From Candidatus Dojkabacteria bacterium (lineage in GTDB: Bacteria; Patescibacteriota; Dojkabacteria; GCA-002793355), in the NCBI GenBank assembly GCA_030583825.1, contig CP129477.1, positions 622,491 to 686,490 of the forward strand: a DNA stretch of 64,000 nucleotides, in the 5' to 3' direction. Below, piece after piece: positions 1,160-30,067 of the stretch (position 1 is the first letter of the stretch; each line of letters starts with the position of its first letter). The translations under genes were made by a program, and so were the position numbers. The notes below the pieces were generated by a model. That model had not been told where the DNA came from, made no database searches, and saw only the letters and a program-made list of their open reading frames with translations.

Positions 1160-4100
1160 ATGTCTTTACTGCTCAAAACAATACATACGCTATATGCCCT
1201 TTTAGTGGCATTCTTTGTAGCATTTGTAGGAGGATTTATCCTCCTTTTTCCGCAGGTTCATTCTCCTGCAAAAATAACTCAAACATGTGTACTTCCTGAA
1301 ACTATTCACGGTAATGTTGAAATTGTTTCAAGTTCAATTGAAACAGCAATTGATTGTCGTCGCCAAGATGTTATTGTCGCTGAAAATGGTAAGCTCACAT
1401 TTATTGGTGCTACAGGCGAGACAGCATCGCCGGAAGTCCGTGTAAGATCATTAACAGTTGCAAATGGTGGAAAAGTAGATGTCGTGGCTATTCAGAATGC
1501 AGTCACTCCAACAATTCTCTTTGCCGGAACAGTATCAATGCAGGATCAGACTGTTAGTAATTCTGCAAAAGTATCTCAGGAAGGCAATTTAGTTGCATTT
1601 AATGCTCAAGTTTTAAGCGTGAATACAAATGAAGAACAACCTTCAGATAGCTCATATATTCAGCTTTCTAATGCATACCAATCTCCAGAAGTTCTTGGAG
1701 AGTCTGTAAATCAGGTGGTAGAGAAGGTGTTCAATGGTTTTTCACTGGAAGAGTTTGTCGCCTCAGCATTGCAGTGCTCACAAGTTTCAGCGATTGAAAG
1801 AGAAAATAATGACAATTGCTATTCTAATAATAGCCAATTGATTGCATCTACAGACAATCCAACATCTTTGACTGTTGCTGCTATTAGCCAAGAAGCACAA
1901 ACATTCTCACGTGTGGCATCAAATAGAGATATTGCGGCGGATGTGCTTGGTGCAAGTGGAAAAATAGTGAATCTGGGCGGAGTTGTAAACCAAAGCGGAC
2001 AGGTAACTCTGAGGGCTGAGGTAACACCACAATTTTATTTTGAAGCTCCAAAGCATATTCAGTTGGAGTTTGAAGTTAAGACGGTGCAAGACGCATTTGA
2101 CGGAACGACCGGAATGTTTTTGTCCGAGCCGGTATTTACAAATGGAACAGACCCCGTCAGTGTTAGTACGACAATAGATTATCTTCCGCAAAATCAGTCG
2201 TTTAAGTGGAGAGTGCGTGTTGTGGAAGTTGCCACCGGTGATAGAGGAGAATGGGTATCATTTGGAGAGAATGGTGAAGAAGAAGCAGACTTTGTTGTTT
2301 CATCTGCAAGCGCACTTAGGCTCGAAGCAGAAAGATATTCATTAGGAACAGAAGATAAAATCACCATTACGGTTACAGCTCTTAATGAAAATGGCCAGCC
2401 TGACGTAGATTACGGAGGTGTTATTCGCTTTAGAAGCGATAGTACTTCTGCAGATTTACCAAAAACATATCGCTTCACCAAAGCAGACAAAGGAACAAAG
2501 GCATTTACAGCGAGTGTGAAGTTTTATGAGCCAGGAGTTCGTTATATTACTGCATTTGACGCTGTAAATAGTTCACTAACAAGTACAGCAGCATTTACTG
2601 TAACACAAAGAGAAACTGAATATTTTGTACTGACAGCAAATAACTATTCACTTTACCGTGGAGAAAGAGCAACTATGATGTGGTCAAGTCGCGGTATGAC
2701 ACAAATTTTGTTACCAAATGGTGAATCAAGCGACCTGGCTGCGGGAACATTCGAAGTAACTCCATCAGAGGATGAGTATGTTTCAGTAAGGGCGATGACT
2801 CCAGAAGGGGTGACTGTATATGCAGGTGCAAATATTACAGTGAATAATGCAGATGTAGATCCACTTACTCGTGAAGATATTGATCCTGCACTGGAAAGAC
2901 AGCGTCGTATAAATCGAATTGCTACACCTGAAGTACAAGGAGTAAATACGGTCGGCGGAATTGCAAGTGAGCTTTTCCCAGACTATCTCCCGGAAGTTTT
3001 TAATGAAAATACAGAAATTCAGACGATTGATGAACCAAAGGTTTGCCCAACAATTGAATATTTCTCATATGACAAGCCATTTATTAAGGGTGGCACAATA
3101 GTTCACTTCTCGTGGAAAGTGAAAGATGCAGAACAGGTTGTTATTGACGCAATTCCGGGAAATCTTTCGTTACAGGGGCATGCCGCAATGTCAGCAGATG
3201 AAACATCTACAATTACCTTAAAGGCGATTGCAGGAACTTGCCATAGGACAATGAGCCTTCCAATTACTGTTGTCAGCGTGTATCCATGGGAAGCAACAGG
3301 TGCCTGGATTATCGGCATTATTTCTCTTGAAACACTTGGTCTTGTATTAGTTCCACTCGCAGCGCCAGGAGTGAAGTTTAATCTCTTCTTTGGTCTTGCA
3401 TCCGTGGTTGATCGTCTTATGAAACGCCGAAAGTGGGGAGTTATTTTCGATACAAACACAAGAAAACCAATTGCAGGAGTAAAAGTTTCAGTCTATTCGC
3501 CTGATAAGAAAATTCTTTATGATTATGCAATGTCAGATAATTACGGAGGAATCTACCTAAAGAACGTTGCTCCGGGCAAATATCGAATCGAGCTTGAAAA
3601 AGTGGGGTACACTCTCGGTTTAGGTAAAGTATCTAAAAAGAGCGGAAAATCTCGCAAAGTTACAGGAGAAAAATACTTTAATGCTATTACGTCTTCGTTA
3701 GTAACAGTGACAAAAGATGGCCTTGCGCAGCAATACAACTTCCCAATGACGGAGAATAAAAAAGAAACAAAGAAATTGATGTATCATGTCATGTTGCTCT
3801 TAGAGGAGCTTGCAACTGTCTCGTTGCCACTTTTCACAATTATAGGAGGAGCATATGCGGTTGCAATCACGCTATTATATCCGGTTACCATGAATTTGAT
3901 GCTTTTGACGATGTATCTGCTTATTGTTCTGGCAAAAATGCTTAACTATTTATTCACTCGGTATACAGTTGGACAGGTAAGAACAGTCACGGGAATCCCA
4001 GTCGCAAACGTTCAAATTGCCTTGTATGATCGCAAAAGTGAGACACTTATTGCTCGCACAACAACAGATAAGTCTGGAAGGTACGTGTTTTTTGCCGCAA

Positions 4101-4255
4101 AGGGTGACTATAATATCGCAGTTGTGGACTCAAACTATAGATTAGTAAATAAAGGCCGTTCAAAACTCGGAATTACCGTTACAAATAAAGAGCAGACTGA
4201 AGATCAAATTTCTGTAGGCAAGAATATTACAGTGTATCCTGCGATGCCTTTGTAG
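1160..4255 (+). CDS. Giant membrane-anchored surface protein (paralog 1 of 3); Ig-like repeats, conserved C-terminal module, two carboxypeptidase-regulatory-like (CarbopepD_reg) domains separated by TM helices
   Basis: 1031-aa ORF with an N-terminal TM/signal segment (LYALLVAFFVAFVGGFILLF) and a long extracellular region. The C-terminus carries the motif KRRKWGVIFDTNTRKPIAGVKVSVYS...GKYRIELEKVGYT, then hydrophobic helices, then a second similar domain GQVRTVTGIPVANVQIALYD...SGRYVFF...GDYNIAVVD. Confidence 0.75.
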   Translation: MSLLLKTIHTLYALLVAFFVAFVGGFILLFPQVHSPAKITQTCVLPETIHGNVEIVSSSIETAIDCRRQDVIVAENGKLTFIGATGETASPEVRVRSLTVANGGKVDVVAIQNAVTPTILFAGTVSMQDQTVSNSAKVSQEGNLVAFNAQVLSVNTNEEQPSDSSYIQLSNAYQSPEVLGESVNQVVEKVFNGFSLEEFVASALQCSQVSAIERENNDNCYSNNSQLIASTDNPTSLTVAAISQEAQTFSRVASNRDIAADVLGASGKIVNLGGVVNQSGQVTLRAEVTPQFYFEAPKHIQLEFEVKTVQDAFDGTTGMFLSEPVFTNGTDPVSVSTTIDYLPQNQSFKWRVRVVEVATGDRGEWVSFGENGEEEADFVVSSASALRLEAERYSLGTEDKITITVTALNENGQPDVDYGGVIRFRSDSTSADLPKTYRFTKADKGTKAFTASVKFYEPGVRYITAFDAVNSSLTSTAAFTVTQRETEYFVLTANNYSLYRGERATMMWSSRGMTQILLPNGESSDLAAGTFEVTPSEDEYVSVRAMTPEGVTVYAGANITVNNADVDPLTREDIDPALERQRRINRIATPEVQGVNTVGGIASELFPDYLPEVFNENTEIQTIDEPKVCPTIEYFSYDKPFIKGGTIVHFSWKVKDAEQVVIDAIPGNLSLQGHAAMSADETSTITLKAIAGTCHRTMSLPITVVSVYPWEATGAWIIGIISLETLGLVLVPLAAPGVKFNLFFGLASVVDRLMKRRKWGVIFDTNTRKPIAGVKVSVYSPDKKILYDYAMSDNYGGIYLKNVAPGKYRIELEKVGYTLGLGKVSKKSGKSRKVTGEKYFNAITSSLVTVTKDGLAQQYNFPMTENKKETKKLMYHVMLLLEELATVSLPLFTIIGGAYAVAITLLYPVTMNLMLLTMYLLIVLAKMLNYLFTRYTVGQVRTVTGIPVANVQIALYDRKSETLIARTTTDKSGRYVFFAAKGDYNIAVVDSNYRLVNKGRSKLGITVTNKEQTEDQISVGKNITVYPAMPL

Positions 4256-4881: not shown

Positions 4882-7800
4882 ATGTTAAGGCATCGTATGG
4901 CTAAATTATTTCCACTGCTTGCTATTTCCGGATTTATCGTATTATCTACATTCTTTTTGTACCATCTCAGCCTTTCTCTTACTGAGCGAAACTTTTTTAC
5001 TCAAGGCGAAGTTCTAGGCCTGGGAACACAGAAATCACCAATTTTACAATCTCTTCGTTCTCTTGACCCAACATCAGAATTATTTAGAACACGTCTTGCG
5101 GCTGATGATTCTTATTACACACTGACAAAAAATGAGAATGATATGGACGTGGATATGACTGCAGGCGTTGATAATATCGCGCTTATTGGAGGGGAAGATA
5201 TATACGTACTTTCTCGGTACGAAGCAAATGGCTCGTATGATTGGTCTCTTGCTTTTTCAGATGCCGGTAGCGATCGCAGGATTCGTGATATGGAAATCGC
5301 TTCGGATGGTGCAATTGTTCTCGTCGGAGATTTTAGTACTACATTCGATTTTGATCCTACGGCAGGAACTGATTCAATTGCTCCCATTAGCTTACGGGAT
5401 GCGTTTTTTACGAAAATCAATTCTGATGGTACGTACGCATGGACAAAATCAATAGGATCATCTAATCCTTCATTAAGCGTCGAAAGTGAAAATATCGCAG
5501 TTGATTCCACTGGAGGAATTTACATTTCTGGAATGCTTGGTGGAACAGTAGATTTCGATCCCGGCCCAGGGGTTGCAGATAAAGATGGCCCAGGCAATTA
5601 TCTTTTAAAGTTAGATTTGGCAGGTGATTTTGAATGGGTAAGAGTGATAGAAATGGCAATTGATTCCATTGCTGTAAACAATGCAACTGGTGCGGTATAT
5701 GTTGATGGCTCATTTTGGGGAACAGATATTGAGTTCAATGACTCAGGGGTAGGCTCAGATACTCATACAGCAACAGGTGTTAATGTAGATGATGTTTTAG
5801 TTCAATATCGAACGAATGGTGACTATGGTTGGTCGAGAGTAATTGAATCAGACGGAGGATTGTCTAACTCTGCATATGAATTTGTTAACGTTTCTCCGTT
5901 TAATGATCAGGTATATTGGGGGAACTTCTTGTCTGACTCAAGTATTGATGCTGATGGAACAGTAGGTGTAGATACAATAAACAAAGTTAACACCGATCCC
6001 GCAGATAGCGATTTTGTTCTCATTAGATATGAAGATAATGGTGATTATGTAGGAGGAAGAACAATTACTGGAGACCAGTACAGTATTGACATTGCAGATA
6101 TGGTATTTGGCCCAACAGGCGAAATATATATTGCAGGCTCTATTTATCCATACGACACATCTCCTATTGATTTAGATTATACAGAAGGTGTTTTTATGTA
6201 TACTCCAGCCTCGGATTGGGGAGGAGGGTATATTATGAAAATGGAAGAGGATACTGATTTTGTATGGATATATCCGACATATGATCCGACCGAAAATTAC
6301 GGAACATATCTATATAACATTAACCGTACAAGTGCTGGACTTCTGATGGTTTCAGGTGTGTACGGTGGGTTAATTGATATGAACCCTTCACAGCATACGG
6401 TGACTAATCTTCCATTTATTGATGGCGGTGACTACGGTGGTTTTATTGCATTCTATACAGACGGCTTCATGACTTACATTGCAAACCTCGACCCTTCATT
6501 AAGAGTGGTTGATCAGGGAACCAGTTTTGATGCAGAAATCGCTTCGGAAATATTTATGTCTGGAACGAGGACGGTAAGGCTAAGAGAAGATTCTACGAAC
6601 CTGCTCCTTGCAGATGCTTTTACTCAAATGAATGAAATTCGCGATTGGGCGACTGTCCAAGGAGAAACTGATCTTGCACTAGAAAAAACATATGTGGGAT
6701 CGCTTCAGGGAAATGACGGAGTTTCAGGCAACATTGATATTTATGTACCTATAGACGATCTGAATGATAACTCTGTTGTTGTTTGCCCACTAGCAGTGTC
6801 CATTGTTGAAGTTGCCACAAACTGTCCCTCTGCTATTATTCTTGCTGAAAATGCACCGAGTGTTTCTAAAGTGAATATTGCAAGCCAGGATTACTGGAAA
6901 GTAACAGGATTAACTAATGGTGGTGTAATCTCTCATACGGTTGTTATCACGCCAACTCCAAGCTCCTCGCCAACGGTTTCGCCAAGTCCTACCGTGACCC
7001 CAACAAGTACGCCAACTTCTACGCCCACACCGACTCCAACCGCAACAGAAACTCCAACGCCTACCATTACGCCAACTTTGACTATAACACCAACAAATAC
7101 TCTTGCGATAACTCCGTCGCCAACCCAGTCATTTACTTCGGGCGACACAAATGTGTCGTGTCCTACAATTACAACCTTTTCTGCTAACAAAACTGTTATC
7201 ACTCCAGGTACAGCAGTCTCATTTGCATGGAGTGTTTCGAATACCGACCATGTGGATATTATTCCTTACATAAATAATGCGCCATTCTCCGGTAATAGAA
7301 TAGAAACAATTTCGCTTGATCAACAAATTACTCTTGTTGCAACAAAAGGGGATTGTGTCAGAGAAAAAACAATCACTATTATGACTCAACCAGTTGCGCC
7401 GGAAACGATTACCTCAGGATTAGTACTCGGTTTTGCTGCTGTAGAAATTGCAACAGTCGCTGTTTCTTCTGTTGTCGCACCGGTTGTAAGCTCAAGTCAC
7501 AACATGTTTTCATTTGGATTCGCAATGATAGACAGACTTCGCAGACGTTACCCATGGGGAGTTGTCTACGACTCAAAAACGAAAAAACCTCTGGGTAGAG
7601 CAATTATTAGAGCAACAAATACCCAAACAAAACAAGTTATTACCAGCGTGACCGATGCCCTCGGCGTATTCCGAATTTTCTTAAAGCAGGGAACGTACAC
7701 AATTTCGGTTACAAAAACTGACTATGAATTTCCATCGAAACTGATTACAACAACAGAAGATAAAGGATATATGAATGTGTACCACGGCGAGGAATTTACT

Positions 7801-8337
7801 GTTCACACAGACGGAGAGTTAGTAATGAAAAGTTTTCCGATGGATCCTGCAGGAGAGACAAAAGTCTCATCACTTTTGAACCTCTGGATCAGTATCAGCC
7901 CGTACTTGGAATATCTTAACTCGTTTGTGCTGTTTGTTGGTATTGGGTTAAGCTTATATACCGTAGTTGTAAACCCAACATTATCAAACTTCCTACTAAT
8001 CGCATTTTACTTGGGTCTTGCTATTACAAAGCTTCTTCTGTTGCAAGTTCCAACCGCGGGAACGGTGAAAGACAGCCAAGGCAATCCTGTCAGAGGAATG
8101 GAAATTGGACTATTCGATGGTGAATTTAAAAACCTCGTTGCAACAACGTTTACTGACGATAAAGGTCAGTTCTCTTTCTACGCCAAAAATGACGACTACA
8201 CCATAAAAGTACTCGATTCCAAATATGAAATGGTAACTGAGAATATCATGGAAGGTATCAGAATACCTAAAGAAGGCGGAAACAATGGCGGAAGAGTAAT
8301 TATGACCGACTTAAAAGTGCGACAAAAAGCCTCATAA
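4882..8337 (+). CDS. Giant surface protein (paralog 2 of 3); SBBP-type beta-propeller repeats, PT-rich linker, conserved C-terminal module, two CarbopepD_reg-like domains flanking a TM hairpin
   Basis: 1151 aa with an N-terminal TM/signal segment. Repeats of the form DFDPTAGTDS...DAFFTKINSDGTYAWTKSIGSS resemble SBBP beta-propeller repeats. A TPTPTSTPTPTPT linker is followed by SFTSGDTNVSCPTITTFSANKTVITPG..., then RRRYPWGVVYDSKTKKPLGRAIIRATN, TM helices, and GTVKDSQGNPVRGMEIGLFD...GQFSFYAKNDDYTIKV. Confidence 0.75.
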   Translation: MLRHRMAKLFPLLAISGFIVLSTFFLYHLSLSLTERNFFTQGEVLGLGTQKSPILQSLRSLDPTSELFRTRLAADDSYYTLTKNENDMDVDMTAGVDNIALIGGEDIYVLSRYEANGSYDWSLAFSDAGSDRRIRDMEIASDGAIVLVGDFSTTFDFDPTAGTDSIAPISLRDAFFTKINSDGTYAWTKSIGSSNPSLSVESENIAVDSTGGIYISGMLGGTVDFDPGPGVADKDGPGNYLLKLDLAGDFEWVRVIEMAIDSIAVNNATGAVYVDGSFWGTDIEFNDSGVGSDTHTATGVNVDDVLVQYRTNGDYGWSRVIESDGGLSNSAYEFVNVSPFNDQVYWGNFLSDSSIDADGTVGVDTINKVNTDPADSDFVLIRYEDNGDYVGGRTITGDQYSIDIADMVFGPTGEIYIAGSIYPYDTSPIDLDYTEGVFMYTPASDWGGGYIMKMEEDTDFVWIYPTYDPTENYGTYLYNINRTSAGLLMVSGVYGGLIDMNPSQHTVTNLPFIDGGDYGGFIAFYTDGFMTYIANLDPSLRVVDQGTSFDAEIASEIFMSGTRTVRLREDSTNLLLADAFTQMNEIRDWATVQGETDLALEKTYVGSLQGNDGVSGNIDIYVPIDDLNDNSVVVCPLAVSIVEVATNCPSAIILAENAPSVSKVNIASQDYWKVTGLTNGGVISHTVVITPTPSSSPTVSPSPTVTPTSTPTSTPTPTPTATETPTPTITPTLTITPTNTLAITPSPTQSFTSGDTNVSCPTITTFSANKTVITPGTAVSFAWSVSNTDHVDIIPYINNAPFSGNRIETISLDQQITLVATKGDCVREKTITIMTQPVAPETITSGLVLGFAAVEIATVAVSSVVAPVVSSSHNMFSFGFAMIDRLRRRYPWGVVYDSKTKKPLGRAIIRATNTQTKQVITSVTDALGVFRIFLKQGTYTISVTKTDYEFPSKLITTTEDKGYMNVYHGEEFTVHTDGELVMKSFPMDPAGETKVSSLLNLWISISPYLEYLNSFVLFVGIGLSLYTVVVNPTLSNFLLIAFYLGLAITKLLLLQVPTAGTVKDSQGNPVRGMEIGLFDGEFKNLVATTFTDDKGQFSFYAKNDDYTIKVLDSKYEMVTENIMEGIRIPKEGGNNGGRVIMTDLKVRQKAS

Positions 8338-8444: not shown

Positions 8445-10757
8445 ATGATAGTGAATCACATCTATACTACACACTTTAGAAATATCCTTTTTGGGCTAGT
8501 TACTCTTGCACTCTTTCTAGTCATTCCACTTGCGACAGTAAAACTATGGGAAGCAACGCTTGATTATTCAGGGTCTCGGGCAGAAGTGCTTAGTGCAGAA
8601 ACTGCGTCAGTAATGTATGGGTTTGGAGATAATGGTAATGGCTCAACCGGTTTAGGTCTTGATACTGGGGATACACTTATTCCTACCCATATTGGTACAG
8701 ACGACGATTGGGTAATGATTGATATAGGAACAACTCACACAATAGCACTAAAAGAAGATGGGACAATGTGGAGCTTTGGCCCCAATACAAACGGAAAAAC
8801 TGGCCAAGGAACAGATACCGGAAGCATATTGGTACCGACTCAGATCGGTTCAGATACAGATTGGATGGCAGTTTCTGCAGGAAGCAACCATTCATTAGCA
8901 TTAAAAGAAGACGGTACGCTCTGGAGTTTTGGAACGAATGGAAGTGGAGCAACAGGATTAGGGACAGGAGTTGGAACCACATTAGTACCAACGCAAGTAG
9001 GAAGTGCCGATGACTGGGCATTTATTTCTGCGGGGAATGGATACTCTCTCGTTATTAAAGAAAATGGTACGTTGTGGGCCTTTGGTGCAAATACGAATGG
9101 AAAAACCGGACTGGGAACAGATTCTGGAAATAATACTACTCCGACACAAGTTGGTTCTGATGCAGATTGGACAGTAGTTTCCGCAGGAGTAAACGATCAC
9201 TCATTAGCTCTCAAAAGTGATGGAACGCTATGGGCTTTTGGTGGTAACAGCAATGCAAAAACAGGACTTGGAACTGCGTCAGGAAATACATTATCGCCAA
9301 CGCAGGTGGGGTCAGACGAAGACTGGACAACAATAACAACTGCTGCAAATCACTCACTTGCGCTAAAGGACGACGGCACGTTATGGAGCTTTGGATCAAA
9401 TAATAGTGGAAAAACGGGACATGGCGTAACATCTGGCGATACTCTTGTGCCGACACAAGTCGGCTCCGATACAGATTGGGCCGCCATTGCCGGAGGAAAC
9501 GGTCACTCGCTCGCAGTAAAAGAAAATGGCACATTGTGGAGTTTTGGACTTAACTCAGACGGAAGAACAGGGCAGGGAACGACAATAGGAATGTTATCGG
9601 TTCCAACCCAAGTGGGAACTGGTGAAAACTGGTTAGCGGTTGCGGCAGGCATAGGGCATTCTCTTGCGCTAAAAGCTCCTCCTGTGGAATATATTGTTCG
9701 ATATACTGCCGGAGGAAACGGCACTATCAGCGGAAGTGAACTTCAATATGTACCTCATGGATTAAATAGTACATCAGTAACAGCGGTTCCTGACGAAGGA
9801 TATCACTTCCTCAATTGGTCAGACGATAGTACAGACAACCCACGAGCCGATACAAATATCACTGATGACATGGAGGTAACGGCAAATTTCGAAGAAGATG
9901 AAGAACCGACACCAACCCCTACTCCAACACCTACCGTAAGTCCGTCTCCCACAGCTTCTCCAAGCCCAACTGCGACGCCTACCCCCACAAGTACCCCAAC
10001 ACCTACAGCTACAGTAACTCCTACTCCAACCTCCACGGTAACAGTGACTATTACACCAACTATCATTGGAACAGCTACCCCGACGCCAGTGATTTCTCCA
10101 ACTCAGTCGTTTACATCTGGAGATACAAATGTATCATGTCCGACAATTGTGGTATTTTCTGCAAATAAAACAGTAATTACCGCCGGAAGTGAAGTAACAT
10201 TCACATGGAATATTACAGGAGCCGAACATGTAGACGTTATGCCATATGTAAGTAATGCGGCACTTTCGGGCAGTAAAACAGAAATATTGACGACAGATCA
10301 GCGAGTAACCCTAGTTGCAACAAATGGAGATTGCTCTCGCGAGAAGTCACTAACAATTATGATGACCCCTATTTCTCTTGAAACTATCACTGGAGGGTTT
10401 GTTGCGGCATTTATTGCGATTGAAGCAGCTGTATTTGGCGCATCAACACTTATGCCGGGAGCGAGTATTGCTGCACAATCCAATATTTTCGGCTGGATTT
10501 TGTTAATGTTGAAGAAAAGTAAAAAGAGCTCCTCCGACCTAGAAAATGAGAAAGATTCAGTTACTATTGCTTCACCATCAGGACTTTCAAAAGCTATTCC
10601 ATATGTCGAGTACCTTAGCGCGTTCCTTCTCTTTGTCGGAATGGGATTAAGTCTTTACACTGTATTTGCTAACCCAATTTTAGGCAATTTCATTCTTGTG
10701 GGAATATATACTGCGCTTTCGGTAGGAAAAATTTTCGCAATGAGAAGCTCGGGGTAG
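8445..10757 (+). CDS. Giant surface protein (paralog 3 of 3); RCC1 (regulator of chromosome condensation) repeats, one Listeria-Bacteroides-type repeat, PT linker, conserved C-terminal module and TM hairpin
   Basis: At least seven RCC1-like repeats (GTLWSFGxNxxGxTGLGT...PTQVGSDxDW...SAGxxHSLALKEDG) and one YIVRYTAGGNGTISGSE...GYHFLNWSDD repeat. The C-terminus QSFTSGDTNVSCPTIVVFSANKTVITAGSEVTFTW...NGDCSREKSLTIMMTP and the TM hairpin IPYVEYLSAFLLFVGMGLSLYTVFANP are homologous to paralog 2. Confidence 0.75.
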   Translation: MIVNHIYTTHFRNILFGLVTLALFLVIPLATVKLWEATLDYSGSRAEVLSAETASVMYGFGDNGNGSTGLGLDTGDTLIPTHIGTDDDWVMIDIGTTHTIALKEDGTMWSFGPNTNGKTGQGTDTGSILVPTQIGSDTDWMAVSAGSNHSLALKEDGTLWSFGTNGSGATGLGTGVGTTLVPTQVGSADDWAFISAGNGYSLVIKENGTLWAFGANTNGKTGLGTDSGNNTTPTQVGSDADWTVVSAGVNDHSLALKSDGTLWAFGGNSNAKTGLGTASGNTLSPTQVGSDEDWTTITTAANHSLALKDDGTLWSFGSNNSGKTGHGVTSGDTLVPTQVGSDTDWAAIAGGNGHSLAVKENGTLWSFGLNSDGRTGQGTTIGMLSVPTQVGTGENWLAVAAGIGHSLALKAPPVEYIVRYTAGGNGTISGSELQYVPHGLNSTSVTAVPDEGYHFLNWSDDSTDNPRADTNITDDMEVTANFEEDEEPTPTPTPTPTVSPSPTASPSPTATPTPTSTPTPTATVTPTPTSTVTVTITPTIIGTATPTPVISPTQSFTSGDTNVSCPTIVVFSANKTVITAGSEVTFTWNITGAEHVDVMPYVSNAALSGSKTEILTTDQRVTLVATNGDCSREKSLTIMMTPISLETITGGFVAAFIAIEAAVFGASTLMPGASIAAQSNIFGWILLMLKKSKKSSSDLENEKDSVTIASPSGLSKAIPYVEYLSAFLLFVGMGLSLYTVFANPILGNFILVGIYTALSVGKIFAMRSSG

Positions 10758-13399: not shown

Positions 13400-15052
13400 T
13401 TATCTGATTATTTTGAAGTATAAGTTGGAATCGTCTCCTCGGTAAATAAAAGTCGAGTCTTCCAAGTAGAAAGATGGGTTTGCCACGCCGCTTTGCAATT
13501 GATAAAGGTTACTACCGATGTAGTCAATTGCCCACATATTGCGATCACTTGTGAAAAGCAGGTAGTGAGAATTAAAAATCCATTTTATTGATTCGATTGG
13601 AACTTCGTTATTTGTAATAAGCTCGCGCTTTCCAAGCTCAATATAATGCTCTGCGGCACGCTTGTTATACGTAAATGTGTACAGATCTTTCTTTGACTCG
13701 CTTGTATAGGAAACTAGAAATCTTTCTGTAACAAACAGAACATCATCAACAAAGTTATCGCTGATTTTTAGCATAGAAATGCCTTCTCCCTGCGAAATAA
13801 TTGGCGTTTCTCCAAGCTTTTGAGTTGCATTCGTAATTTCATACTCTCCAACTCGGTTGTCGTACATATTTCCTACTAAATAAGAACCATCTATTCCGGC
13901 CAAGACGATAATTGTTTTGTCAGACAAATTTACAGCTGAGACTTCTTTTGGAGCTGTTGGCAGAGAAACATATTTGATGTCAGACTCAATTTCGTTTCCA
14001 TTGAAAGAGATTTGCTCAACAGAGTAGTGGGTTCCTTCTGGTAATGGGGAAGGTGTTGGAAGGTTCTGATCAAGTGCATTCTTTACGATGATTACGCCGT
14101 CGTCTGTCATTGCCCAGATGAATGTGTCAAATCGTGATAACTTATCAAACAAAATAATTCGTGCTCCGGTTTTAATATTGTACGAAATAACCTGGCTTTT
14201 AGACTCGATTAACAAATAATCTGAATTTTTGGCCCATTTGAGAATGCTGTCATCTTCGTCAATGTAAATATCGAGCTGAACGTTGCTAAATGGAATAATC
14301 TTTTCAACTTTTGTTGTAGAAAATGTCACAATTGAGGCTGATTTCTGACCTCTTGCATTCGCAATAGTGACAAGAATAGATTTTCCGGTAGGGGAGAGTG
14401 TAAAGTCATCAATGCTCCATCCTTGTGGAACCTCAATGAATGCACGCTCTCTTGTTGCAGGCTTTGGAGGTTCAAAGAAACTTCGCTGCACAATATATTT
14501 TGTAATGCTATATAACTGTTGCGCCGGGCTTTGCGCTGTTGGTACTGGAGTTACGGTAGTACCGGGGGTTTGTGTCGTGATCGCAGTTGCATCTGATGAC
14601 GAAGGAGACAAAATATAAACGCCTGATTCGTTCGAAAATACTTTATCTATTGCGCCAATTGAAGTAACCGATTCTGCGCCTGTTTGCTTAATCAAAGGAG
14701 CAATAATGATTGTTGCAAGCCCATGCCTTACGTCAACTGTTCTTTTGTACGAGTAATAACCGTCTTTGGACAGGTTAATTGCGTATGTTCCAGTTGTGAG
14801 ATTTGGAATTGCGCGATTTGTCGTTCCAATATATTCATTATTTATTGTGATTGCTGCGTCAGAAGGGTTCGTTTCGAGGTTTAAAACTCCTGTTTTTATA
14901 AGCTGTTTTTGAGAAATGTCTATTGAGTAGCCATTAACAATGATGAGAATGACGATAGTCGTACCGATAAGAAATAGACCTGAAAAGATGGGAAGAGCCA
15001 CAGTTATCACCTTTTTTGCCAACTTTTTTATTGCGTCTTTGGGAAATTTCAT
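13400..15052 (-). CDS. Membrane-anchored PEGA-domain protein with a beta-propeller-like C-terminal region
   Basis: 550 aa. N-terminal TM (ALPIFSGLFLIGTTIVILIIV), then a PEGA-like stretch (NLETNPSDAAITINNEYIGTTNRAIPNLTTGTYAINLSKDGYYSYKRTVDVRHG), then repetitive beta-rich sequence. Confidence 0.6.
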   Translation of the reverse strand: MKFPKDAIKKLAKKVITVALPIFSGLFLIGTTIVILIIVNGYSIDISQKQLIKTGVLNLETNPSDAAITINNEYIGTTNRAIPNLTTGTYAINLSKDGYYSYKRTVDVRHGLATIIIAPLIKQTGAESVTSIGAIDKVFSNESGVYILSPSSSDATAITTQTPGTTVTPVPTAQSPAQQLYSITKYIVQRSFFEPPKPATRERAFIEVPQGWSIDDFTLSPTGKSILVTIANARGQKSASIVTFSTTKVEKIIPFSNVQLDIYIDEDDSILKWAKNSDYLLIESKSQVISYNIKTGARIILFDKLSRFDTFIWAMTDDGVIIVKNALDQNLPTPSPLPEGTHYSVEQISFNGNEIESDIKYVSLPTAPKEVSAVNLSDKTIIVLAGIDGSYLVGNMYDNRVGEYEITNATQKLGETPIISQGEGISMLKISDNFVDDVLFVTERFLVSYTSESKKDLYTFTYNKRAAEHYIELGKRELITNNEVPIESIKWIFNSHYLLFTSDRNMWAIDYIGSNLYQLQSGVANPSFYLEDSTFIYRGDDSNLYFKIIR

Positions 15053-15099: not shown

Positions 15100-16113
15100 G
15101 TGATCTCGTTTAAACAAAAAAGATTAGGCATAGATTTGGGGACAGCTAACTCTATTGTCTTTATTCAGGGGGCAGGCGTTGTCTTTGAAGAGCCTACAAT
15201 TGTAGCAATTGATGTTATTGACCTGTCTATCGTCTCAATTGGCAAGGAAGCAAAGCAAATGCTGGGAAAAACCCCAGAAAATATTATTATTAAGCGTCCA
15301 TTAAAGAGTGGCGTTATTGCAAGTGCCCGTATCACCGAAGAATTATTGAGATTCTTTATTAACAAAGCCGTTGGCAGAATTAGGTTCTTTAAACCGGAAG
15401 TTATGATTAGTGCGCCTGTTGGTATTACTTCTGTTGAAAAGCGTGCGATTGTAAAAGCCGCGTTACAGGCTGGTGCGAGCAAAGTATATTTGATCCCCGA
15501 ACCGCTAGCTGCGGCGATTGGTGCAAAATTGCCAATTCATTCATCTGCCGGAAATATGATTGTTAATATTGGCGGTGGAACGACAGAAATTGCGGTTATT
15601 TCATTAAATGGCATTGTTATTTCAAACTCAATTCGTGTTGCAGGAGATGCATTCAACGATGCAATAATTTCCTACGCAAGGAAAGAAAGAAATTTGATAA
15701 TTGGTGAGCAGATGTCGGAGAAAATTAAGATGACAATTGGCTCTGCGATGCAAATGGAGGAGCCTTTAGTGATGGAAGTGAGTGGAAGAGACTTAGGATC
15801 GGGGTTACCTCGTATCGATGAATTTAATTCAAATGAAATAGCCATCGCGTTAAAAGGCCCGATCAGTGAAATTTTAATGTCAATTAAGCGATTATTAGAG
15901 AAGACTCCTCCGGAACTTTCTGCCGATATTATTGATCGTGGCATTGTCATGAGCGGAGGAAGCTCAATGCTTCGCAATTTGGACAAACTCTTTACAAAGG
16001 CGATGGGAGTTCCGGCATTTCTTGCAGATGATCCTATCCGCTGCGTTGCAAAAGGAACAGGGATTGCTCTGGAATTTTTGCCAGTGTTGAAAAAATCTCT
16101 GACTACCTACTAA
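15100..16113 (+). CDS. mreB: Rod-shape-determining protein MreB (GTG start)
   Basis: LGIDLGTANSIVF... actin-fold phosphate-1 motif, IPEPLAAAIGA, GGGTTEIAVIS and GIVMSGGSSML; 337 aa. RBS AAGGGGAGG upstream of the GTG. Confidence 0.9.
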   Translation: MISFKQKRLGIDLGTANSIVFIQGAGVVFEEPTIVAIDVIDLSIVSIGKEAKQMLGKTPENIIIKRPLKSGVIASARITEELLRFFINKAVGRIRFFKPEVMISAPVGITSVEKRAIVKAALQAGASKVYLIPEPLAAAIGAKLPIHSSAGNMIVNIGGGTTEIAVISLNGIVISNSIRVAGDAFNDAIISYARKERNLIIGEQMSEKIKMTIGSAMQMEEPLVMEVSGRDLGSGLPRIDEFNSNEIAIALKGPISEILMSIKRLLEKTPPELSADIIDRGIVMSGGSSMLRNLDKLFTKAMGVPAFLADDPIRCVAKGTGIALEFLPVLKKSLTTY

Positions 16114-23156: not shown

Positions 23157-24905
23157 ATGCCCTCGCTATACACTCAATTCAGACCTAAAACATTTGGCGC
23201 ACTGTTAGGACAGCATCATATTGTGTCGCTGTTGCAGGCCGAACTTGCCGCAGGAAAAACCTCCCATTCGTATATCTTTATAGGCCCACGCGGAACAGGA
23301 AAAACAACAACAGCGAGAATCCTTGCGAAAGCACTGAATTGCGAAAGCCTCCAGGACGACGGATCTCCATGTGATAAGTGTCCGAGTTGTGTCGCGTTTT
23401 CTTCAGGCAAATTTCTGGATCTTATCGAAATTGATGCAGCATCAAACCGCGGCATTGATGAAATTCGCGAAATGAAAGAAAAAATAGAATTTCGCCCATC
23501 TCAAGGAAGACAAAAAGTCTACATTATTGACGAGGTACACATGCTCACAAAAGAAGCCTTTAACGCGCTTCTTAAGACACTTGAAGAGCCACCCACCCAC
23601 GTTACCTTTATTCTTGCAACAACAGAGCCTCATAAAATTCCGCTCACGATTCTTTCCAGGTGTGAAAAATGCGAATTTAGACTTGGTGGAGAATCAGATA
23701 TAACGGCTGTTCTTGAACGAGTTCTTGCAGAGCAGGGAATTACAGCAACTCCAGAAGCATTAAATTTGCTTGTATCGTTTGCAGGTGGAAGTTATCGCGA
23801 TGCCTTATCTCTGTTGGATACGGTGATTGCTGCTGCAGAAAAAAATCAGATTGCCGAAACTACTGTCCGCGAAATGCTTGGACTTCCAAGTGATGCTCTT
23901 GTTGCTTCATACCTTACTGCCCTGGCGTCTGGCCAAACGGATACTGCCCTCCAGACGCTTCAATCGGTATTTAGCGCAGGAGTGTATATTCCGCAATTTA
24001 CCAAAGCAATTATCACAGTCTTAAAAAACTGGCTGGTAAAAAAGCATTCTCCAATTGCGGGTTCGGTGGAATTTACCCAAGCACAACTTATCAAATTAAT
24101 TGGCATTTTTCTCGAAGCATATACACAGCAGAGAAATGCTTTTGATCCTGAATTGCCTTTGCAACTTGCGACACTTCAAGCAGTGAATGTTGTCAGTCCA
24201 GATGCGCTTGCTGTGGAAGCAATTCGAAGTACTCAACCACAAATTGCTTCAGGCCCAAGCACAACAATTAAAGAAAAGACTGAATCGGCACCAGCTATGG
24301 TAACTGTAGCCCCAATGCCAAATATTCAACCAAAAAAGCAGGAAGAACCTCTTCAGGTTGTAGAAAAGGTAGAGACAAAAGAAGAAGAGCCAAAAGAAGA
24401 AGAGCCAGTAAAGTCTGAAATAAAAGCAAAGAAAAAACTCAAAAAGAAGTCTAAAAAGGTAGAAGCAGAGCAAAGTGCTGAGCCAGAAAAACTACTCACA
24501 TTGGAAGAAGTTAAAATGTTATGGGGTACTTTCTTGAGGTCAGTACAGTCACAAAATAATCTTCTTTACGCTATGCTCGTAAGTTCTGTGCCTTTGTCGC
24601 TCGTAAGAGATGAAATGCTTAGCGTTTTTAAAATAGAAATTGGCGTAAGATTTGATGCCCACAAGAAAAAAGTTGAGAGCGCAACCGTCAAACCATTGCT
24701 TCAAACTGTGGGCAAAAGCGTGTACGGAACAAGCCTACAATTCGTCTGTACCGTTACAAAAGACCTGAACACCAATGCCTCCTTACCTGTGGAAACTTCG
24801 TCTGCTACAATGACACAATCTCATGTTCCGGCAGTCGAACAGGTAGAAGATCTAGGATCTGTTTTTGACGATGTTATGGGAGCTGAGATTGAAAACCTCG
24901 CATAA
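23157..24905 (+). CDS. dnaX: DNA polymerase III subunit gamma/tau
   Basis: Walker A GPRGTGKTTTARILAKAL, Zn module CESLQDDGSPCDKCPSC, DEVHML box, SRC motif (TILSRCEKCEF), then a K/E-rich tau-like C-terminal region. Confidence 0.9.
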   Translation: MPSLYTQFRPKTFGALLGQHHIVSLLQAELAAGKTSHSYIFIGPRGTGKTTTARILAKALNCESLQDDGSPCDKCPSCVAFSSGKFLDLIEIDAASNRGIDEIREMKEKIEFRPSQGRQKVYIIDEVHMLTKEAFNALLKTLEEPPTHVTFILATTEPHKIPLTILSRCEKCEFRLGGESDITAVLERVLAEQGITATPEALNLLVSFAGGSYRDALSLLDTVIAAAEKNQIAETTVREMLGLPSDALVASYLTALASGQTDTALQTLQSVFSAGVYIPQFTKAIITVLKNWLVKKHSPIAGSVEFTQAQLIKLIGIFLEAYTQQRNAFDPELPLQLATLQAVNVVSPDALAVEAIRSTQPQIASGPSTTIKEKTESAPAMVTVAPMPNIQPKKQEEPLQVVEKVETKEEEPKEEEPVKSEIKAKKKLKKKSKKVEAEQSAEPEKLLTLEEVKMLWGTFLRSVQSQNNLLYAMLVSSVPLSLVRDEMLSVFKIEIGVRFDAHKKKVESATVKPLLQTVGKSVYGTSLQFVCTVTKDLNTNASLPVETSSATMTQSHVPAVEQVEDLGSVFDDVMGAEIENLA

Positions 24906-24928
24906 TTCAGTAAAACAGGGGAAATTTC

Positions 24929-27900
24929 ATGGAAAATAAAGGTTTTACTCATCTGCATCTACATACAGAGTATTCGATGCTCGATGGGCTTATAAAAATC
25001 AAAGAGTTAATGTCTCAGGTAAAAGAGTTGGGTATGGACGCTGTTGGCATTACCGACCATGGTGTTATGCACGGCGTTGTAGATTTTTATAAAGCGGCAA
25101 AAGATGCCGAAATCAAACCGATTATTGGAGTTGAAGCATATATCACAAAAGATCACCTCAAAAAAGAAGGGCGCCCTGCTAAGGGGGATGACGAAAAAGC
25201 CTACTTTCACCTCACACTTCTCGCTAAAAATTTACAAGGATACAAAAATCTTCTCAAGCTTGTTTCTATCGCAAATACAAGTGGTTATTACTACAAACCG
25301 AGAATTGATAGAGAATTATTAACGCAATACAAAGAAGGACTTATCGTGTTAAGTGGATGCTACGGGAGTGAATTTGTTCATACGCTGCGTCTCAATAAAA
25401 CTGATCCTGCACTCGCAGTAAAGCGTGGACTTGAACATGTCGCAGAATATACTGACCTTTTTGGAGATGATTACTACATCGAAATTCAGCGAGGTACAGC
25501 AGGCGAAGAAGAAAAAGTCCTTGAGCCATTGCTTCGTGAGGTTGCAAAACAGGCAAATAAAAAGCTTATTGCCACTGGCGATGTCCACTACATGTACAAA
25601 GAAGATGCGAAAATTCAGGATATTTATTGGGCAATCAACGAAGGACTGACTATTACTGACCCCAAACATAAGCCAATGTATACAGAAGAGCTGTATTTAA
25701 AAAGTCCTGATGAATTTTACAAACTGTTTAACGATATTCCAGAAGCGGTATTCAATACGAATGAAATAAAAGAAAAAGTCGAAAAATACAATATTTTCTT
25801 TGATCGAGTACAGCCCCATTATTTAGATGTTCCAGAAGGAATGACTGCCGGAGACCATATTCGTGATCTTGCGTTTGCTGGAGCAATGAAGCGTTACGGT
25901 GATATTACAGAAAAAACAAAAGAACGACTTAATTACGAACTGAGTGTTATCCACGACAAAGGCTATGATGATTATTTCCTTATTGTCGCGGACTATATTC
26001 GCTGGGCAAAAGAGCAGGGCATTATTGTTGGGCCAGGCCGTGGTTCAGGCGCAGGAAGTGTTGTTGCGTATGTACTTGGAATTACAGACATTGATCCATT
26101 TTGGTGGGGATTACAATTTGAGCGATTCTTAAACCCATACCGACCATCTCCTCCTGACTTCGATATTGACTTTCAAGATGATCGTCGCGACGAAGTTATT
26201 AGCTACATTGAGCAAAAATACGGGAAAGAAAATGTGACAGCAATTTGTGCAATTGGACGTTTGGAAGCAAAAGCTGCTATTCGAGATGTCTCGCGTGCAT
26301 TAGGAATTCCTCTTGATCTTGTTGATAAATTCGCAAAGATGATTCCGGTAAAGCGTGGAAAGCCTATGGATTTAGGAGAAGCTGTTGAAACCATTTCGGA
26401 AGTGTCAGACTTTGTGAATACTCATCCAGAATTTCAGAATGTTATTAAAGCAGTCTCTCGTATTAAAAAAGGGGCAAGGCATGTGTCGGTTCACGCATGT
26501 GGATACATTATTACACCGACCCCAGTGAGTGATTATGTTCCGCTACGAAGAGCCCCACAGGATGAAGACCTTGTTATTACGCAAATCCCAGGCTCAAAGA
26601 TTGAAGACGTTGGGTTAATGAAATACGACTTTCTTGGCTTGAGAACACTGACAATTTTGAAAAATGCAGAAAACGCAATTAAAGAGCAGCACGGCATTGA
26701 AACTGACTGGAATGAAATCGGTTTGGACGATGCAAAAACATATAAAATTTTCCAGAAAGGACTGACTGACAGTGTATTCCAGTTTGAATCTGGTGGAATG
26801 AAGAAATTCCTTATTGACTTGCATCCAGAGCGAATTGAAGACATCAACTTCATGGCCGCAGCATATCGTCCTGGGCCAATGGGCTATATTCCAAGCTATA
26901 TTGACCGAAAGTTTGGCCGTGAAAAAGTAAAATACCTCCACGAAGATCTAAAACCGATTCTTGAAGAAACAATGGGCTATGCCGTGTATCAAGAGCAAGT
27001 CATGCAGATTGCGGTAGATTTAGGAGGATATACAGTTGGACAAGCAGATCTCCTTCGTCGCGCAATGGGTAAAAAAGACAAACAGATTCTTGAAGGTGAA
27101 AAAGAAAAGCTGATTGAAGGTATGCTCGCTAGGGGATATAACCGTGAGCTGGGAGAAGAAGTATTCTCGTACATGCTTCCATTTGCTGACTATGGATTTA
27201 ATAAAGCTCACTCAGCTTGTTATGCCGTTATTGCGTATCGAACTGCATATTTGAAAGCACATCACCCTGTAGAATTTGTACTTGGAGTCATGCAGTCAGA
27301 CCTCGAGCGTATTCCAAAACTCGAAAAAGACCTCCAAATGGCACTTTCTATGCATATCAAAGTACTTCCTCCGTCAATTAACAAAAGTAATATGAAGTTT
27401 ACAATCGAAAAGCACGACGACTTCATGGAAGAGCACTGGTTAGATGACGATTTTGATAAAATTCTGGCGGAGAAAGAAGAAAAAGGTGAGTATCACCATC
27501 TTGGAACAATTTTATACGGTCTTGGTGGAATCAAAGGAACAAGCAAGAAGTCTCTGGAAGCAATTTTAGAAGAGCGCAATAAAAACGGAGCATTTAAACA
27601 TTTAGACGACTTACTTTCGCGTGTGAATATCGAGCAGGTGGATAAAAAGACACTCTTGCTTTTGGCACAATCTGGAGCATTCGAAGAGTTTGGAGAAAGA
27701 AACTCATTAATAGCTCTGATTCCGGTGCTATACGACCGCTATAAATCAGATAAAAAGAAAGAATCCGCTGAGCAAATTTCATTATTTGCCGCAACAACCA
27801 GTTCTCAGCAATTTGTACAGCAGACTCCACTTCCTCAAGTTGAGCCTGCTACTGTCCTGCAAATTCTGAACTGGGAGAAAGAAATGTTTGGAGTGTATCT

Positions 27901-28495
27901 TACAGACCATCCTCTTGCCCAAATTGGTGACTACTTTATGAACCAAGGCGCACTAAGCATTAAGCAGGCAAAAGAAGAGCTTCCAACTGAACAAATTCTT
28001 GTTGGTGCGCAAATTCAGCGAATGAAAAAGCTTAATACGAAAAATGGCGATCTTATGGCATTTGTAGACTTAGAAGATTCAACCGACACCGTCAGCGGTG
28101 TGCTGTTTCCAAAAGTGTATGAAGCATTTGCCAAATTACTGAATGAGTCTAATGCAACGGTTGGGATGCCATTTCTTTTTAAGGGCAAAATTGACCATAA
28201 ATTAGACAAATTCAGCTTCATAATCAATGACTTTGAGGTTATAGACTTTGAACGTGCAAAAAGTGGAAATAACGCAATTGAACATGTTGTACTCAAGCTA
28301 AAGAAAACACTTAAGAAAGAAGATCTTGATTCACTAAAAGTATTTCTGAAAGCTCATGAAGGTAAAACGAAACTCTCGTTTGATGTGCCAACTGGAAACA
28401 ATTACCGACGTGTTGCATATAGATCAGGACTGTTTTACACATTTGACTCGAAGAAGACGTTGTCGAAGTACGGTGAGGTTTTGGAAGGAAAGTAA
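24929..28495 (+). CDS. dnaE: DNA polymerase III alpha subunit
   Basis: PHP domain ([15 protein letters not shown]), polymerase core ([39 protein letters not shown]) and an OB-fold region; 1188 aa. Confidence 0.9.
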   Translation: [1188 protein letters not shown]

Positions 28496-28616
28496 CCTTT
28501 CATTGCGAGGGATTAACTATTTTGAGCAATAAGTGAGATTCTGCAATTACAGAGAGGGAAGCGAACGTTGTAAATTGGCAGTCATCGAAAGAAGAGTGAA
28601 AAATAGTGTGGACAGC

Positions 28617-28625
28617 TTATCCACA
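28617..28625 (+). promoter_or_regulatory. Consensus DnaA box TTATCCACA, with an adjacent imperfect inverted partner TGTGGACAG at 28607-28615, in the dnaE-dnaA spacer
   Basis: Perfect 9/9 match to the bacterial DnaA-box consensus 18 nt upstream of the dnaA start. Confidence 0.6.
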
Positions 28626-28642
28626 ATGTCTTACAATAGCTC

Positions 28643-30067
28643 ATGGCGGCGATTCAAACCATGTCAGATTCTGACTTACAAAGAATGTGGGAGCTTGCAA
28701 AAGTTTCTCTCGCGAAAAAGATTTCTCCAACTCATTTTAAAGCATGGATTGAACATAGTGCACGCCTTGCCGAAATTGACGAAATTAACAAAAAAGTTGT
28801 CATTGATGTAAAAAGCTCTGTCGCGCTTAATGCGATAGAGAAGTATGTAAAAGCATCACTTTCCGATATCTTTACTGACTTTTTGGGAGAGTCTCACGAG
28901 GCACTCTTTAGAGTGAAAGCAGCAAGTTTTCAGAATGCTCACTCTATGACAGCAGTTAAAAAAGTTCAGACTATGCCGGAAACTACGGGTTCACTTTTAG
29001 ATCCTGAAAATGCATATAACACACGTCTCAAGAAGGCAATTGATAATGCAGGTCTTAACGATAAGTACACATTTGAAACATTTGTTATTGGCGCAAATAA
29101 TCAGCTTGCACATGCCGCAGCAACAGCAGTGGCAGGAAGTTTGGGAACAGCGTACAACCCGCTGTTCATTTATGGAACGGTTGGTGTTGGTAAAACTCAC
29201 TTAATGCAGGCAGTTGCCCGACGAGCATTGGAAAAAGATCCAGACAGAAAAATCTTGTATGTCTCAAGCGAAACATTTTTAAATGCGATGGTTGACTCTA
29301 TTCGATCAAAGAAAACAGCAGAATTCCGTAACCAATATCGTAAGCTTGACTTGCTCATGATTGATGACATTCAGTTTATTTCGGACTGGGAAGCTGCCCA
29401 AAATGAACTTTTTCACACATTTAACGTGCTGTACGAAGCGGGAAAACAGATAATTCTTGCATCAGATAAACCTCCATCAGAAATTCGAAATCTGGCAGAT
29501 AGACTTCGTTCACGTTTTGAGGGAGGAATGGTCGCAGATGTAACAGCTCCTGACTACGAAACTCGTGTTGCAATTCTCACAAAGCATAATGAAGAGCAGC
29601 TTGATACTCGCCTTCCACAGGAAGCATTGGAAGTTATTGCGTCGTATGTTGAAAGCAATATTCGTCAGCTATTTGGGGCATATAATAAAGTTCACACATA
29701 TGCAAAAGTTACTAAAGCGCCAGTTGATCGTCTTATTGTTGAGAAGATTCTGGGCCATGAGCGGGAGCTTGCACGCAAAAAAGTAAAGGTTGAAGACATT
29801 CTCGACAAAGTGGGTGAAGAATTTGGAATCACAATCGGTCAATTAAAGTCTTCGACAAGGGCCGCATCTGTGGTACTTCCAAGACAAGTATGTATGTACC
29901 TTATTCGTGATATACTTCATTATCCACTTGAACGGGTTGCACGAAGCCTCAAGCGATCCGACCATACGACGGTACTTCATGCCGTAGATAAGGTCATCAA
30001 ATTGATGGAAAATGACCATCATTTGCGGGCGCAAGTCGTTGCAATCAAGCAGCAATTGCTTAAGTAA
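28643..30067 (+). CDS. dnaA: Chromosomal replication initiator DnaA
   Basis: AAA+ Walker A GTVGVGKTHLMQAVA, Walker B LLMIDDIQF, sensor/arginine-finger region, and the C-terminal DNA-binding helix-turn-helix (VCMYLIRDILHYPLERVARSLKRSDHTTVLHAVDKV). Confidence 0.9.
   Translation: MAAIQTMSDSDLQRMWELAKVSLAKKISPTHFKAWIEHSARLAEIDEINKKVVIDVKSSVALNAIEKYVKASLSDIFTDFLGESHEALFRVKAASFQNAHSMTAVKKVQTMPETTGSLLDPENAYNTRLKKAIDNAGLNDKYTFETFVIGANNQLAHAAATAVAGSLGTAYNPLFIYGTVGVGKTHLMQAVARRALEKDPDRKILYVSSETFLNAMVDSIRSKKTAEFRNQYRKLDLLMIDDIQFISDWEAAQNELFHTFNVLYEAGKQIILASDKPPSEIRNLADRLRSRFEGGMVADVTAPDYETRVAILTKHNEEQLDTRLPQEALEVIASYVESNIRQLFGAYNKVHTYAKVTKAPVDRLIVEKILGHERELARKKVKVEDILDKVGEEFGITIGQLKSSTRAASVVLPRQVCMYLIRDILHYPLERVARSLKRSDHTTVLHAVDKVIKLMENDHHLRAQVVAIKQQLLK

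Follow-up and report, generated by a model that had tools for sequence, protein, structure and literature searches.

A C-terminal membrane cassette with two transthyretin-like domains in Patescibacteria proteins

Attachment to other cells is the way of life of the Patescibacteria (candidate phyla radiation; hereafter, CPR), in which surface proteins play a central part but are mostly annotated as hypothetical. We describe a membrane cassette at the C-termini of three tandem paralogs (p1, p2 and p3) encoded in a 64,000-nucleotide stretch of a Candidatus Dojkabacteria genome (assembly GCA_030583825.1, contig CP129477.1, positions 622,491–686,490 of the forward strand; hereafter, the window). A close described relative of its folded parts is the transthyretin-like domain of carboxypeptidase D (PF13620, CarboxypepD_reg; PDB code: 5aq0). 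In the cassette, by comparison, two copies of such a domain flank a membrane hairpin behind a predicted stop-transfer helix, and both are predicted to be cytoplasmic. The first copy moreover carries a family-specific extension (GY.FPS..V.G...Y.N.Y.G...SIPLDP), and the cassette has no associated peptidase or TonB-dependent receptor.

Several other systems share individual features with these proteins. Like sortase substrates of the LPXTG type, the paralogs place a hydrophobic segment and then a basic cluster behind an adhesin-like ectodomain, and they belong to an organism that lacks an outer membrane. However, the sequences ahead of the anchor (YPWEATGA in p1, APETITSG in p2 and SLETITGG in p3) contain no LPXTG, and the basic cluster is not C-terminal but is followed by around 270 conserved residues; a sortase-type sorting signal was therefore ruled out. 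The NikL subunit of energy-coupling factor (ECF) transporters (NF058648) likewise places a small beta-sandwich of the same clan beside transmembrane (TM) helices. Domain 2 of the cassette matches this model weakly (E 7e-4 and 9e-5), but with 19.7 and 22.6 bits versus a cut-off of 100, and with around 47–52 of 180 model positions covered, membership was rejected; no ECF transporter genes were found near the paralogs. NOMO of the BOS complex (PDB code: 9c7v) differs in being eukaryotic, with lumenal domains, a single C-terminal TM helix and no hairpin between domains. A further point of comparison is provided by intramembrane-sensing histidine kinases with accessory membrane partners, such as BceAB with BceS and LiaF with LiaS.

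Two beta-sandwich domains around a membrane hairpin

The three genes lie on the forward strand, as do all features given below unless stated otherwise, and encode proteins of 1031 (p1, 1160–4255), 1151 (p2, 4882–8337) and 770 residues (p3, 8445–10757). Each protein begins with a hydrophobic signal or anchor segment (residues 11–30 in p1) followed by a long acidic ectodomain, in which lysine plus arginine (K/R) versus aspartate plus glutamate counts are 49/87 for p1, 29/97 for the main part of p2 and 21/61 for p3. Scans with Pfam and NCBIfam models identified SBBP-type propeller repeats in p2, and seven RCC1 repeats together with an InlB-type Flg_new_2 domain in p3; in both proteins these are followed by a linker rich in proline and threonine (PT-rich; 6949–7125 in p2). 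A Cys-flanked immunoglobulin (Ig)-like domain (CPTI…C.R) directly precedes the anchor helix in all three paralogs (p1 3044–3271, residues 629–704; p2 7159–7383; p3 10137–10361), where it would lie just outside the membrane, and in 36 of the 110 family members described below. The p1 protein is 100% identical to QY314_02890, a protein from a metagenome-assembled genome of Candidatus Dojkabacteria annotated at NCBI as 'hypothetical protein', and was found in two independent read-set assemblies.

The cassette of p1 opens with anchor helix A (3293–3373, residues 712–738, ATGAWIIGIISLETLGLVLVPLAAPGV), which has a central glutamate and is predicted to be a stop-transfer span running from outside to inside. 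It is followed by a short juxtamembrane hydrophobic helix, B, with a basic cluster (3374–3436, KFNLFFGLASVVDRLMKRRKW); the roughly 11 hydrophobic residues of helix B are insufficient to cross a membrane. Domain 1 (3437–3757, residues 760–866) is a CarboxypepD_reg-like beta-sandwich with the family-specific extension at its C-terminal end. It leads into a two-helix membrane hairpin (3770–3964, residues 871–935) made up of an amphipathic pre-helix, TM2, a short turn and TM3, the last of which contains an intramembrane lysine. The second beta-sandwich, domain 2 (3965–4252, residues 936–1031), closes the protein and holds the best PF13620 stretch of p1 (938–1009). In p2 the same order is seen: anchor helix A with a central glutamate (7402–7488), helix B with an RRR cluster (7498–7557), domain 1 (7558–7848, residues 893–989), the hairpin with an NPT turn (7867–8058, residues 996–1059) and domain 2 (8059–8334, residues 1060–1151). 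Domains 1 and 2 of p2 are themselves paralogous, with 32% identity over 63 residues (E 2e-5). Both p1 and p2 match the family hidden Markov model (HMM) end to end (positions 2–379 and 1–380; E 9e-98 and 3e-132). An earlier note on this DNA, made from the letters alone, had proposed this order of helix, domain, TM helices and domain in p1 and its repetition in p2; the order is real, and with the coordinates mapped, the range it gave for p1 (3300–4255) is seen to begin 7 nucleotides (nt) inside the anchor helix and that for p2 (7440–8337) also begins within the anchor.

The fold proposed in that note is borne out by profile searches. PF13620 matched two stretches in each of p1 (50.0 bits, E 3.9e-13) and p2 (66.3 bits, E 3.1e-18), clearing its gathering cut-off of 32.3 bits, and gave no match above this cut-off in p3. 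The positions of domain 1 (p1 residues 760–835, p2 893–961) and domain 2 (p1 938–1009, p2 1059–1115) were separately matched by sister families of the same clan, namely CarbopepD_reg_2, SpaA, SdrD_B and DUF1416, and the fold is that of a seven-stranded transthyretin-like beta-sandwich. In hydropathy profiles, domain 1 is preceded by an anchor helix and separated from domain 2 by a hydrophobic stretch of around 45–58 residues. AlphaFold2 (AF2) modelling reached a confidence (pLDDT) of 54 with four sequences and of 83.6 (pTM 0.60) with a 40-sequence family alignment, in which values exceed 90 over most of domain 1 (including that of p2), the hairpin helices and domain 2. In both the alignment and the model, the stretch between the domains comprises two helices (model residues 163–196 and 200–220, corresponding to the p2 hairpin; pLDDT 81–97) joined by a turn of 3–5 residues, the turn regions reading YPVTMN in p1, VNPTLSN in p2 and ANPILGN in p3. 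That the hydrophobic stretches might be buried strands was ruled out, as AF2 gives helices at high confidence.

The third paralog has a reduced cassette. It keeps anchor A (10380–10463), helix B with a KKSKK cluster (10479–10526) and the hairpin (10596–10754), with a 23-residue linker (10527–10595) in place of domain 1; domain 2 is absent, and the stop codon falls seven residues past the last hairpin helix. The earlier note had recognized that p3 retains the hairpin without either beta-sandwich, to which the retained anchor can be added. Matches of p3 to the family HMM are confined to positions 1–118 (Ig-like domain and anchor) and 236–287 (hairpin), and no remnant of either beta-sandwich was found downstream of the stop codon. 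DNA similarity between p2 and p3 survives only in the PT-linker and Ig region and in the first hairpin helix. The protein thus combines an RCC1 propeller and Flg_new_2 domain with a cassette stripped of both beta-sandwiches. On a related contig (L001), the p2 orthologue stands directly before a FemAB-like gene, and p3 is accordingly taken as an extra copy in the present genome.

Distribution and conservation of the family

A profile of the module was searched against 1.84 billion cluster representatives, returning 6475 matches at E ≤ 1e-3 and 167 at E ≤ 1e-30. The database frequency of the order TM–domain–TM–TM–domain was checked in the best 150 matches, 110 of which contain it as one unbroken match that runs from anchor through domain 2. 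In these 110 module carriers, which range in length from 275 to 6305 residues, the match mostly ends within 30 residues of the C-terminus (89/110), and an N-terminal hydrophobic segment is present in 71 of the 78 Met-starting proteins with more than 150 residues ahead of the module. The consensus runs from a K/R cluster to P-W-G (glycine in 107/110), followed by vVYDSvTKePi…SIPLDP for domain 1. The hairpin has conserved positions G253 (101/110), S257, P265, N269 (84), Y276 (89) and K283, and domain 2 starts with G293 (107/110) and V295 (99/110). A loose P-W-E motif is seen ahead of the anchor helix in family members. The cassette can be defined by an anchor helix, a K/R cluster, [WY]G, a domain 1 ending in S/N-IP-L-D-P, a hairpin with G..S...P...N...Y, then G.V and a C-terminal domain 2, all of which are found in p1 and p2.

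The genomes of GTDB species were scanned with a hand-made degenerate DNA pattern for W-G-[VI]-V-Y-[DN]-S-V-T-K. Full modules are encoded by 110 of the 112 matching stretches, the other two being the sole contigs from Kiritimatiellae and Lentisphaerae. The carriers are nearly all Patescibacteria, with around 50 Saccharibacteria, many lineages of Paceibacterota/Parcubacteria, and also WWE3, Doudnabacteria, Magasanikbacteria, Falkowbacteria and unclassified Patescibacteria. One contig labelled 'uncultured Gammaproteobacteria' (CAZPBK010000006.1, locus L063) encodes the full cassette in an open reading frame (ORF) of at least 1803 residues that is cut at the edge of the locus; mis-binning or mislabelling of a Patescibacteria contig is the probable cause. 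Overall, the cassette is an architectural variant assembled from known parts, and is conserved Patescibacteria-wide rather than being a local oddity.

The ectodomains ahead of the cassette vary, and include fn3, Big_5, PKD, NHL/SGL propellers, He_PIG, RCC1 and SBBP. There are, in addition, stand-alone forms of around 300 residues with neither ectodomain nor signal peptide, from which the cassette appears to be more than a tether. The protein P0001 was considered as a stand-alone form of 369 residues and rejected, its gene call being truncated at a contig end. Members are named in their sources as 'hypothetical protein', 'transthyretin family', 'YvrE' or 'glycine-rich'. Neither the hairpin nor the composite cassette has a model in Pfam or NCBIfam, and literature searches found no description of the cassette; the cassette is apparently undescribed so far. 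A word-indexed protein search matched only P0001 and four others, its sensitivity being too low to show the family, and a single-protein search of genome contigs found no relatives. As the cassette is common to proteins with very different ectodomains from deep CPR lineages, it offers a handle for finding membrane-anchored surface proteins.

Membrane topology and proposed role

The two beta-sandwich domains must lie on one face of the membrane, because the chain between them consists of a helix, the 3–5 residue turn and a second helix. Two helices are counted between the domains in 95 of the 110 members, within which G253, S257, P265, N269 and Y276 are conserved. The shared face is most likely the cytoplasm, as every K/R cluster flanking the membrane is found on the side of the domains. 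Within around 15 residues of the membrane, p1, p2 and p3 have 11, 7 and 7 K/R on the domain side and none on the other side, defined here as the turn and the residues preceding helix A. For the 110 members, the mean K/R count per 15 residues is 3.9 behind the anchor, and 3.1 and 3.3 on the N- and C-terminal flanks of the hairpin, whose turn has 0.66 charged residues; in 100 GTDB loci, taken as an independent set, the same flanks have 3.8, 3.5 and 4.1 and the turn 0.31. Helix A is predicted to span the membrane and helix B not, since B is short (around 11 hydrophobic residues) and lies at a variable distance from A, the intervening spacer measuring 4 to around 20 residues across the family.

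The composition of the domains points in the same direction. All 86 ectodomains longer than 200 residues are net acidic, with a mean charge of −6.0 per 100 residues for 78 of them, and a control set of 258 tandem repeats that share the fold but are extracellular averages −7.6 per 100 residues, with 3% positive. The two domains of the module, in contrast, average +0.4 and +0.9 (p 2e-37 and 6e-32). Among short forms, six lack helix A, having a single amphipathic helix only, and carry basic N-terminal tails (+3 to +6); in three that have both A and B, and whose hydrophobic stretch is double and around 40 residues long, the tails range from −2 to +1. The positive-inside pattern, together with the difference in charge from extracellular repeats, thus suggests that the extracytoplasmic context usual for CarboxypepD_reg domains does not apply here. 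Acidic residues in helix A go together with basic residues in TM3 across the family (28/29 versus 14/31, Fisher p 1e-5), and p1, p2 and p3 have both; this fits a packing of helix A on the hairpin in which the two residues probably pair.

The neighbours of the 110 GTDB module loci were clustered. At at least 17 loci, the module gene is followed in the same direction by a single-domain response regulator (RR), either directly (L012, L031, L049, L052, L059, L064, L028, L037 and L069) or with a histidine kinase (HK) in between (L047, L060, L061, L070, L074, L076, L080 and L081), with gaps of 0–180 nt, most below 100 nt. These loci come from Saccharibacteria, Doudnabacteria, Paceibacterota, Staskawiczbacteria, Kaiserbacteria and Parcubacteria, and five of them encode stand-alone forms (L012, L031, L049, L059 and L064). 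The receivers are single Response_reg domains without an output domain. The kinases comprise HisKA and HATPase_c without a sensor domain, and at their N-termini have two TM helices with almost no external loop, one TM helix plus PAS, or no TM helix. Regulators of this kind act through protein–protein contacts, and sensor-less kinases rely on accessory proteins; the predicted cytoplasmic domains of the module are therefore plausible partners for both. The layout resembles that of BceAB and LiaF, where an accessory membrane protein supplies the input, in that the module gene directly precedes a sensor-less kinase with two TM helices or none. It differs in that the cassette has no sequence or fold relation to those proteins, the regulator has no output domain and the interaction is putative; moreover, the operon-like arrangement is absent from the window and is seen in other CPR species. 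For the subset of the family with this adjacency, it suggests a cytoplasmic docking or signalling role of the cassette.

Taken together, these observations are probably best accounted for by a Patescibacteria-wide cassette that serves as both anchor and docking platform, with its two domains in the cytoplasm. Helix A would carry the chain as a stop-transfer segment from the acidic ectodomain into the cell, where the short interfacial helix B and the K/R cluster would hold it at the inner leaflet, placing transthyretin-like domain 1 in the cytoplasm. The hairpin would then insert from the cytoplasmic side, in–out–in, with its uncharged NP-type turn outside, and the second, paralogous beta-sandwich would form the cytoplasmic C-terminus. 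Helix A and the two hairpin helices would probably pack together, with the acidic residue of A paired to the basic residue of TM3. So arranged, the cassette would anchor a range of adhesin-like ectodomains stably and at the same time offer them a docking platform in the cytoplasm, the likeliest docking partners, judging from other CPR lineages, being single-domain response regulators and sensor-less histidine kinases. The cassette thereby predicts an unusual cytoplasmic use of the transthyretin-like fold and points to a link with minimal two-component systems in which kinases have no sensor and regulators no output domain; such a link, if true, would reveal how cells this reduced translate contact at their surface into a response inside.

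Other topologies were weighed against this cytoplasmic placement. While its fold assignment stands, the earlier note had put the two domains on opposite faces or in a re-entrant topology; opposite faces would call for an odd number of spans between them. The hydrophobic stretch between the domains of p1 is indeed long, at around 58 residues, and a crude hydropathy count gives three segments in 11 of the 110 members. The extra length in p1 and p2 is, however, an amphipathic pre-helix that is continuous with TM2 and contains E/K, both flanks of the hairpin are rich in K/R around an uncharged turn, and the helix–turn–helix seen in the alignment, the AF2 model and most members returns the chain to the side from which it came, making placement on opposite faces very improbable. 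Alternatively, both domains could be extracytoplasmic, with A and B forming a re-entrant loop from outside, the hairpin dipping in with its NP turn in the cytoplasm, and two hairpins keeping the whole protein on display at the surface. Domains of the CarboxypepD_reg, CnaB and SdrD-B types are typically extracellular, the best structural matches of the fold are surface or secreted proteins throughout, and in short forms adjacent to FolD the helix behind the basic N-terminal tail could be an N-in signal anchor exporting domain 1. Yet with this arrangement, in both the 110 and the 100 sequences, all K/R clusters would be outside and the inner side nearly free of charge, contrary to the positive-inside rule. 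The short hydrophobic run of helix B in long forms and the variable A–B spacer speak against it, as does the sharp difference in charge between the module domains and extracellular repeats of the same fold, and the charge of the N-terminal tails shifts with helix A as the cytoplasmic model predicts. We regard it as improbable.

Within the cytoplasmic topology, the cassette could be a passive, robust anchor or oligomerisation base for the surface proteins of cells that lack an outer membrane, with no signalling partner, the HK/RR synteny reflecting lineage-specific gene order. Neither p1, p2 nor p3 has an HK or RR neighbour, neighbourhoods differ among loci, and the loss of both beta-sandwiches from p3, with anchor and hairpin kept, suggests that the membrane part is the indispensable one. 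A purely passive role is possible but unlikely, given that two domains of around 100 residues are conserved across deep CPR lineages with invariant glycine, proline and aromatic positions, that stand-alone forms have no ectodomain to anchor, that the order of module, optional HK and RR recurs from Saccharibacteria and Doudnabacteria to Paceibacterota, Staskawiczbacteria and Kaiserbacteria, and that a regulator without an output domain needs a protein target. A more far-reaching proposal, which we consider doubtful, would make the cassette the common transmembrane and cytoplasmic signalling base of Patescibacteria-wide adhesin-receptors. On binding of the variable ectodomain to a host surface, the signal would pass by way of the three-helix bundle to the two transthyretin-like domains in the cytoplasm, and these would dock the single-domain RR, the sensor-less HK or both; alternatively, the regulator might act on the domains and switch adhesin activity. 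If this is true, ultra-small episymbiotic bacteria would have an integrin-like system working outside-in or inside-out.

Several points weigh against the anchor-and-docking account that we favour. The side assignment draws on the positive-inside rule and composition, CarboxypepD_reg domains are typically extracytoplasmic, and the confidence of the AF2 model is low for anchor helix A (pLDDT 43–52). The control repeats come from 13 taxonomically unassigned giant proteins among the same profile matches, the comparison of N-terminal tails comprises 9 cases only, and the GTDB scan sampled one motif variant only. The counts of acidic and basic residue co-occurrence and of synteny ignore shared ancestry. 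Finally, no homologue of the RR or HK clusters was found within the window, and a signalling link for p1, p2 and p3 would follow from their homology to proteins encoded elsewhere.

Other neighbours and features of the window

The most frequent neighbour of the module, seen at 30 GTDB loci (e.g. L085, L021, L112 and L050), always lies on the module strand at a distance of around 670 nt. It consists of a signal-peptide protein with a C-terminal TM helix together with a pilin-like protein that repeats the motif S-x-N-Y-R/K-x-Q/E-x-D/T, and Pfam gave no match for this cluster. It may be related to the CPR Pam pilus operon. A preprint on the Pam pilus describes a conserved 'tail fibre-like protein' near that operon and concerns other proteins; this neighbour of the Pam operon is a candidate module carrier.

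Within the window, two ORFs on the reverse strand (6933–7202 and 9803–10066; 87–89 residues with GVGV repeats) lie opposite the Pro/Thr-rich linkers of p2 and p3 and are almost certainly spurious mirror ORFs. A 1516-residue ORF at 55503–60053, a putative large surface protein with an N-terminal anchor, a glycine run and repeat regions, gave no match to the cassette HMM. The genes dnaX, dnaE and dnaA lie in series at 23157–30067 on the forward strand; no origin signal is visible in the window, where the cumulative GC skew rises almost throughout with no clear switch. At 13400–15052 on the reverse strand, a 550-residue membrane-anchored protein, whose L001 orthologue has a PEGA-domain match, is encoded head to head with MreB (15100–16113, forward strand). 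The block of FemAB-like, PRK, PEGA and MreB genes is syntenic in L001, and at 11 of the 110 module loci MreB falls inside the 8-kb block.

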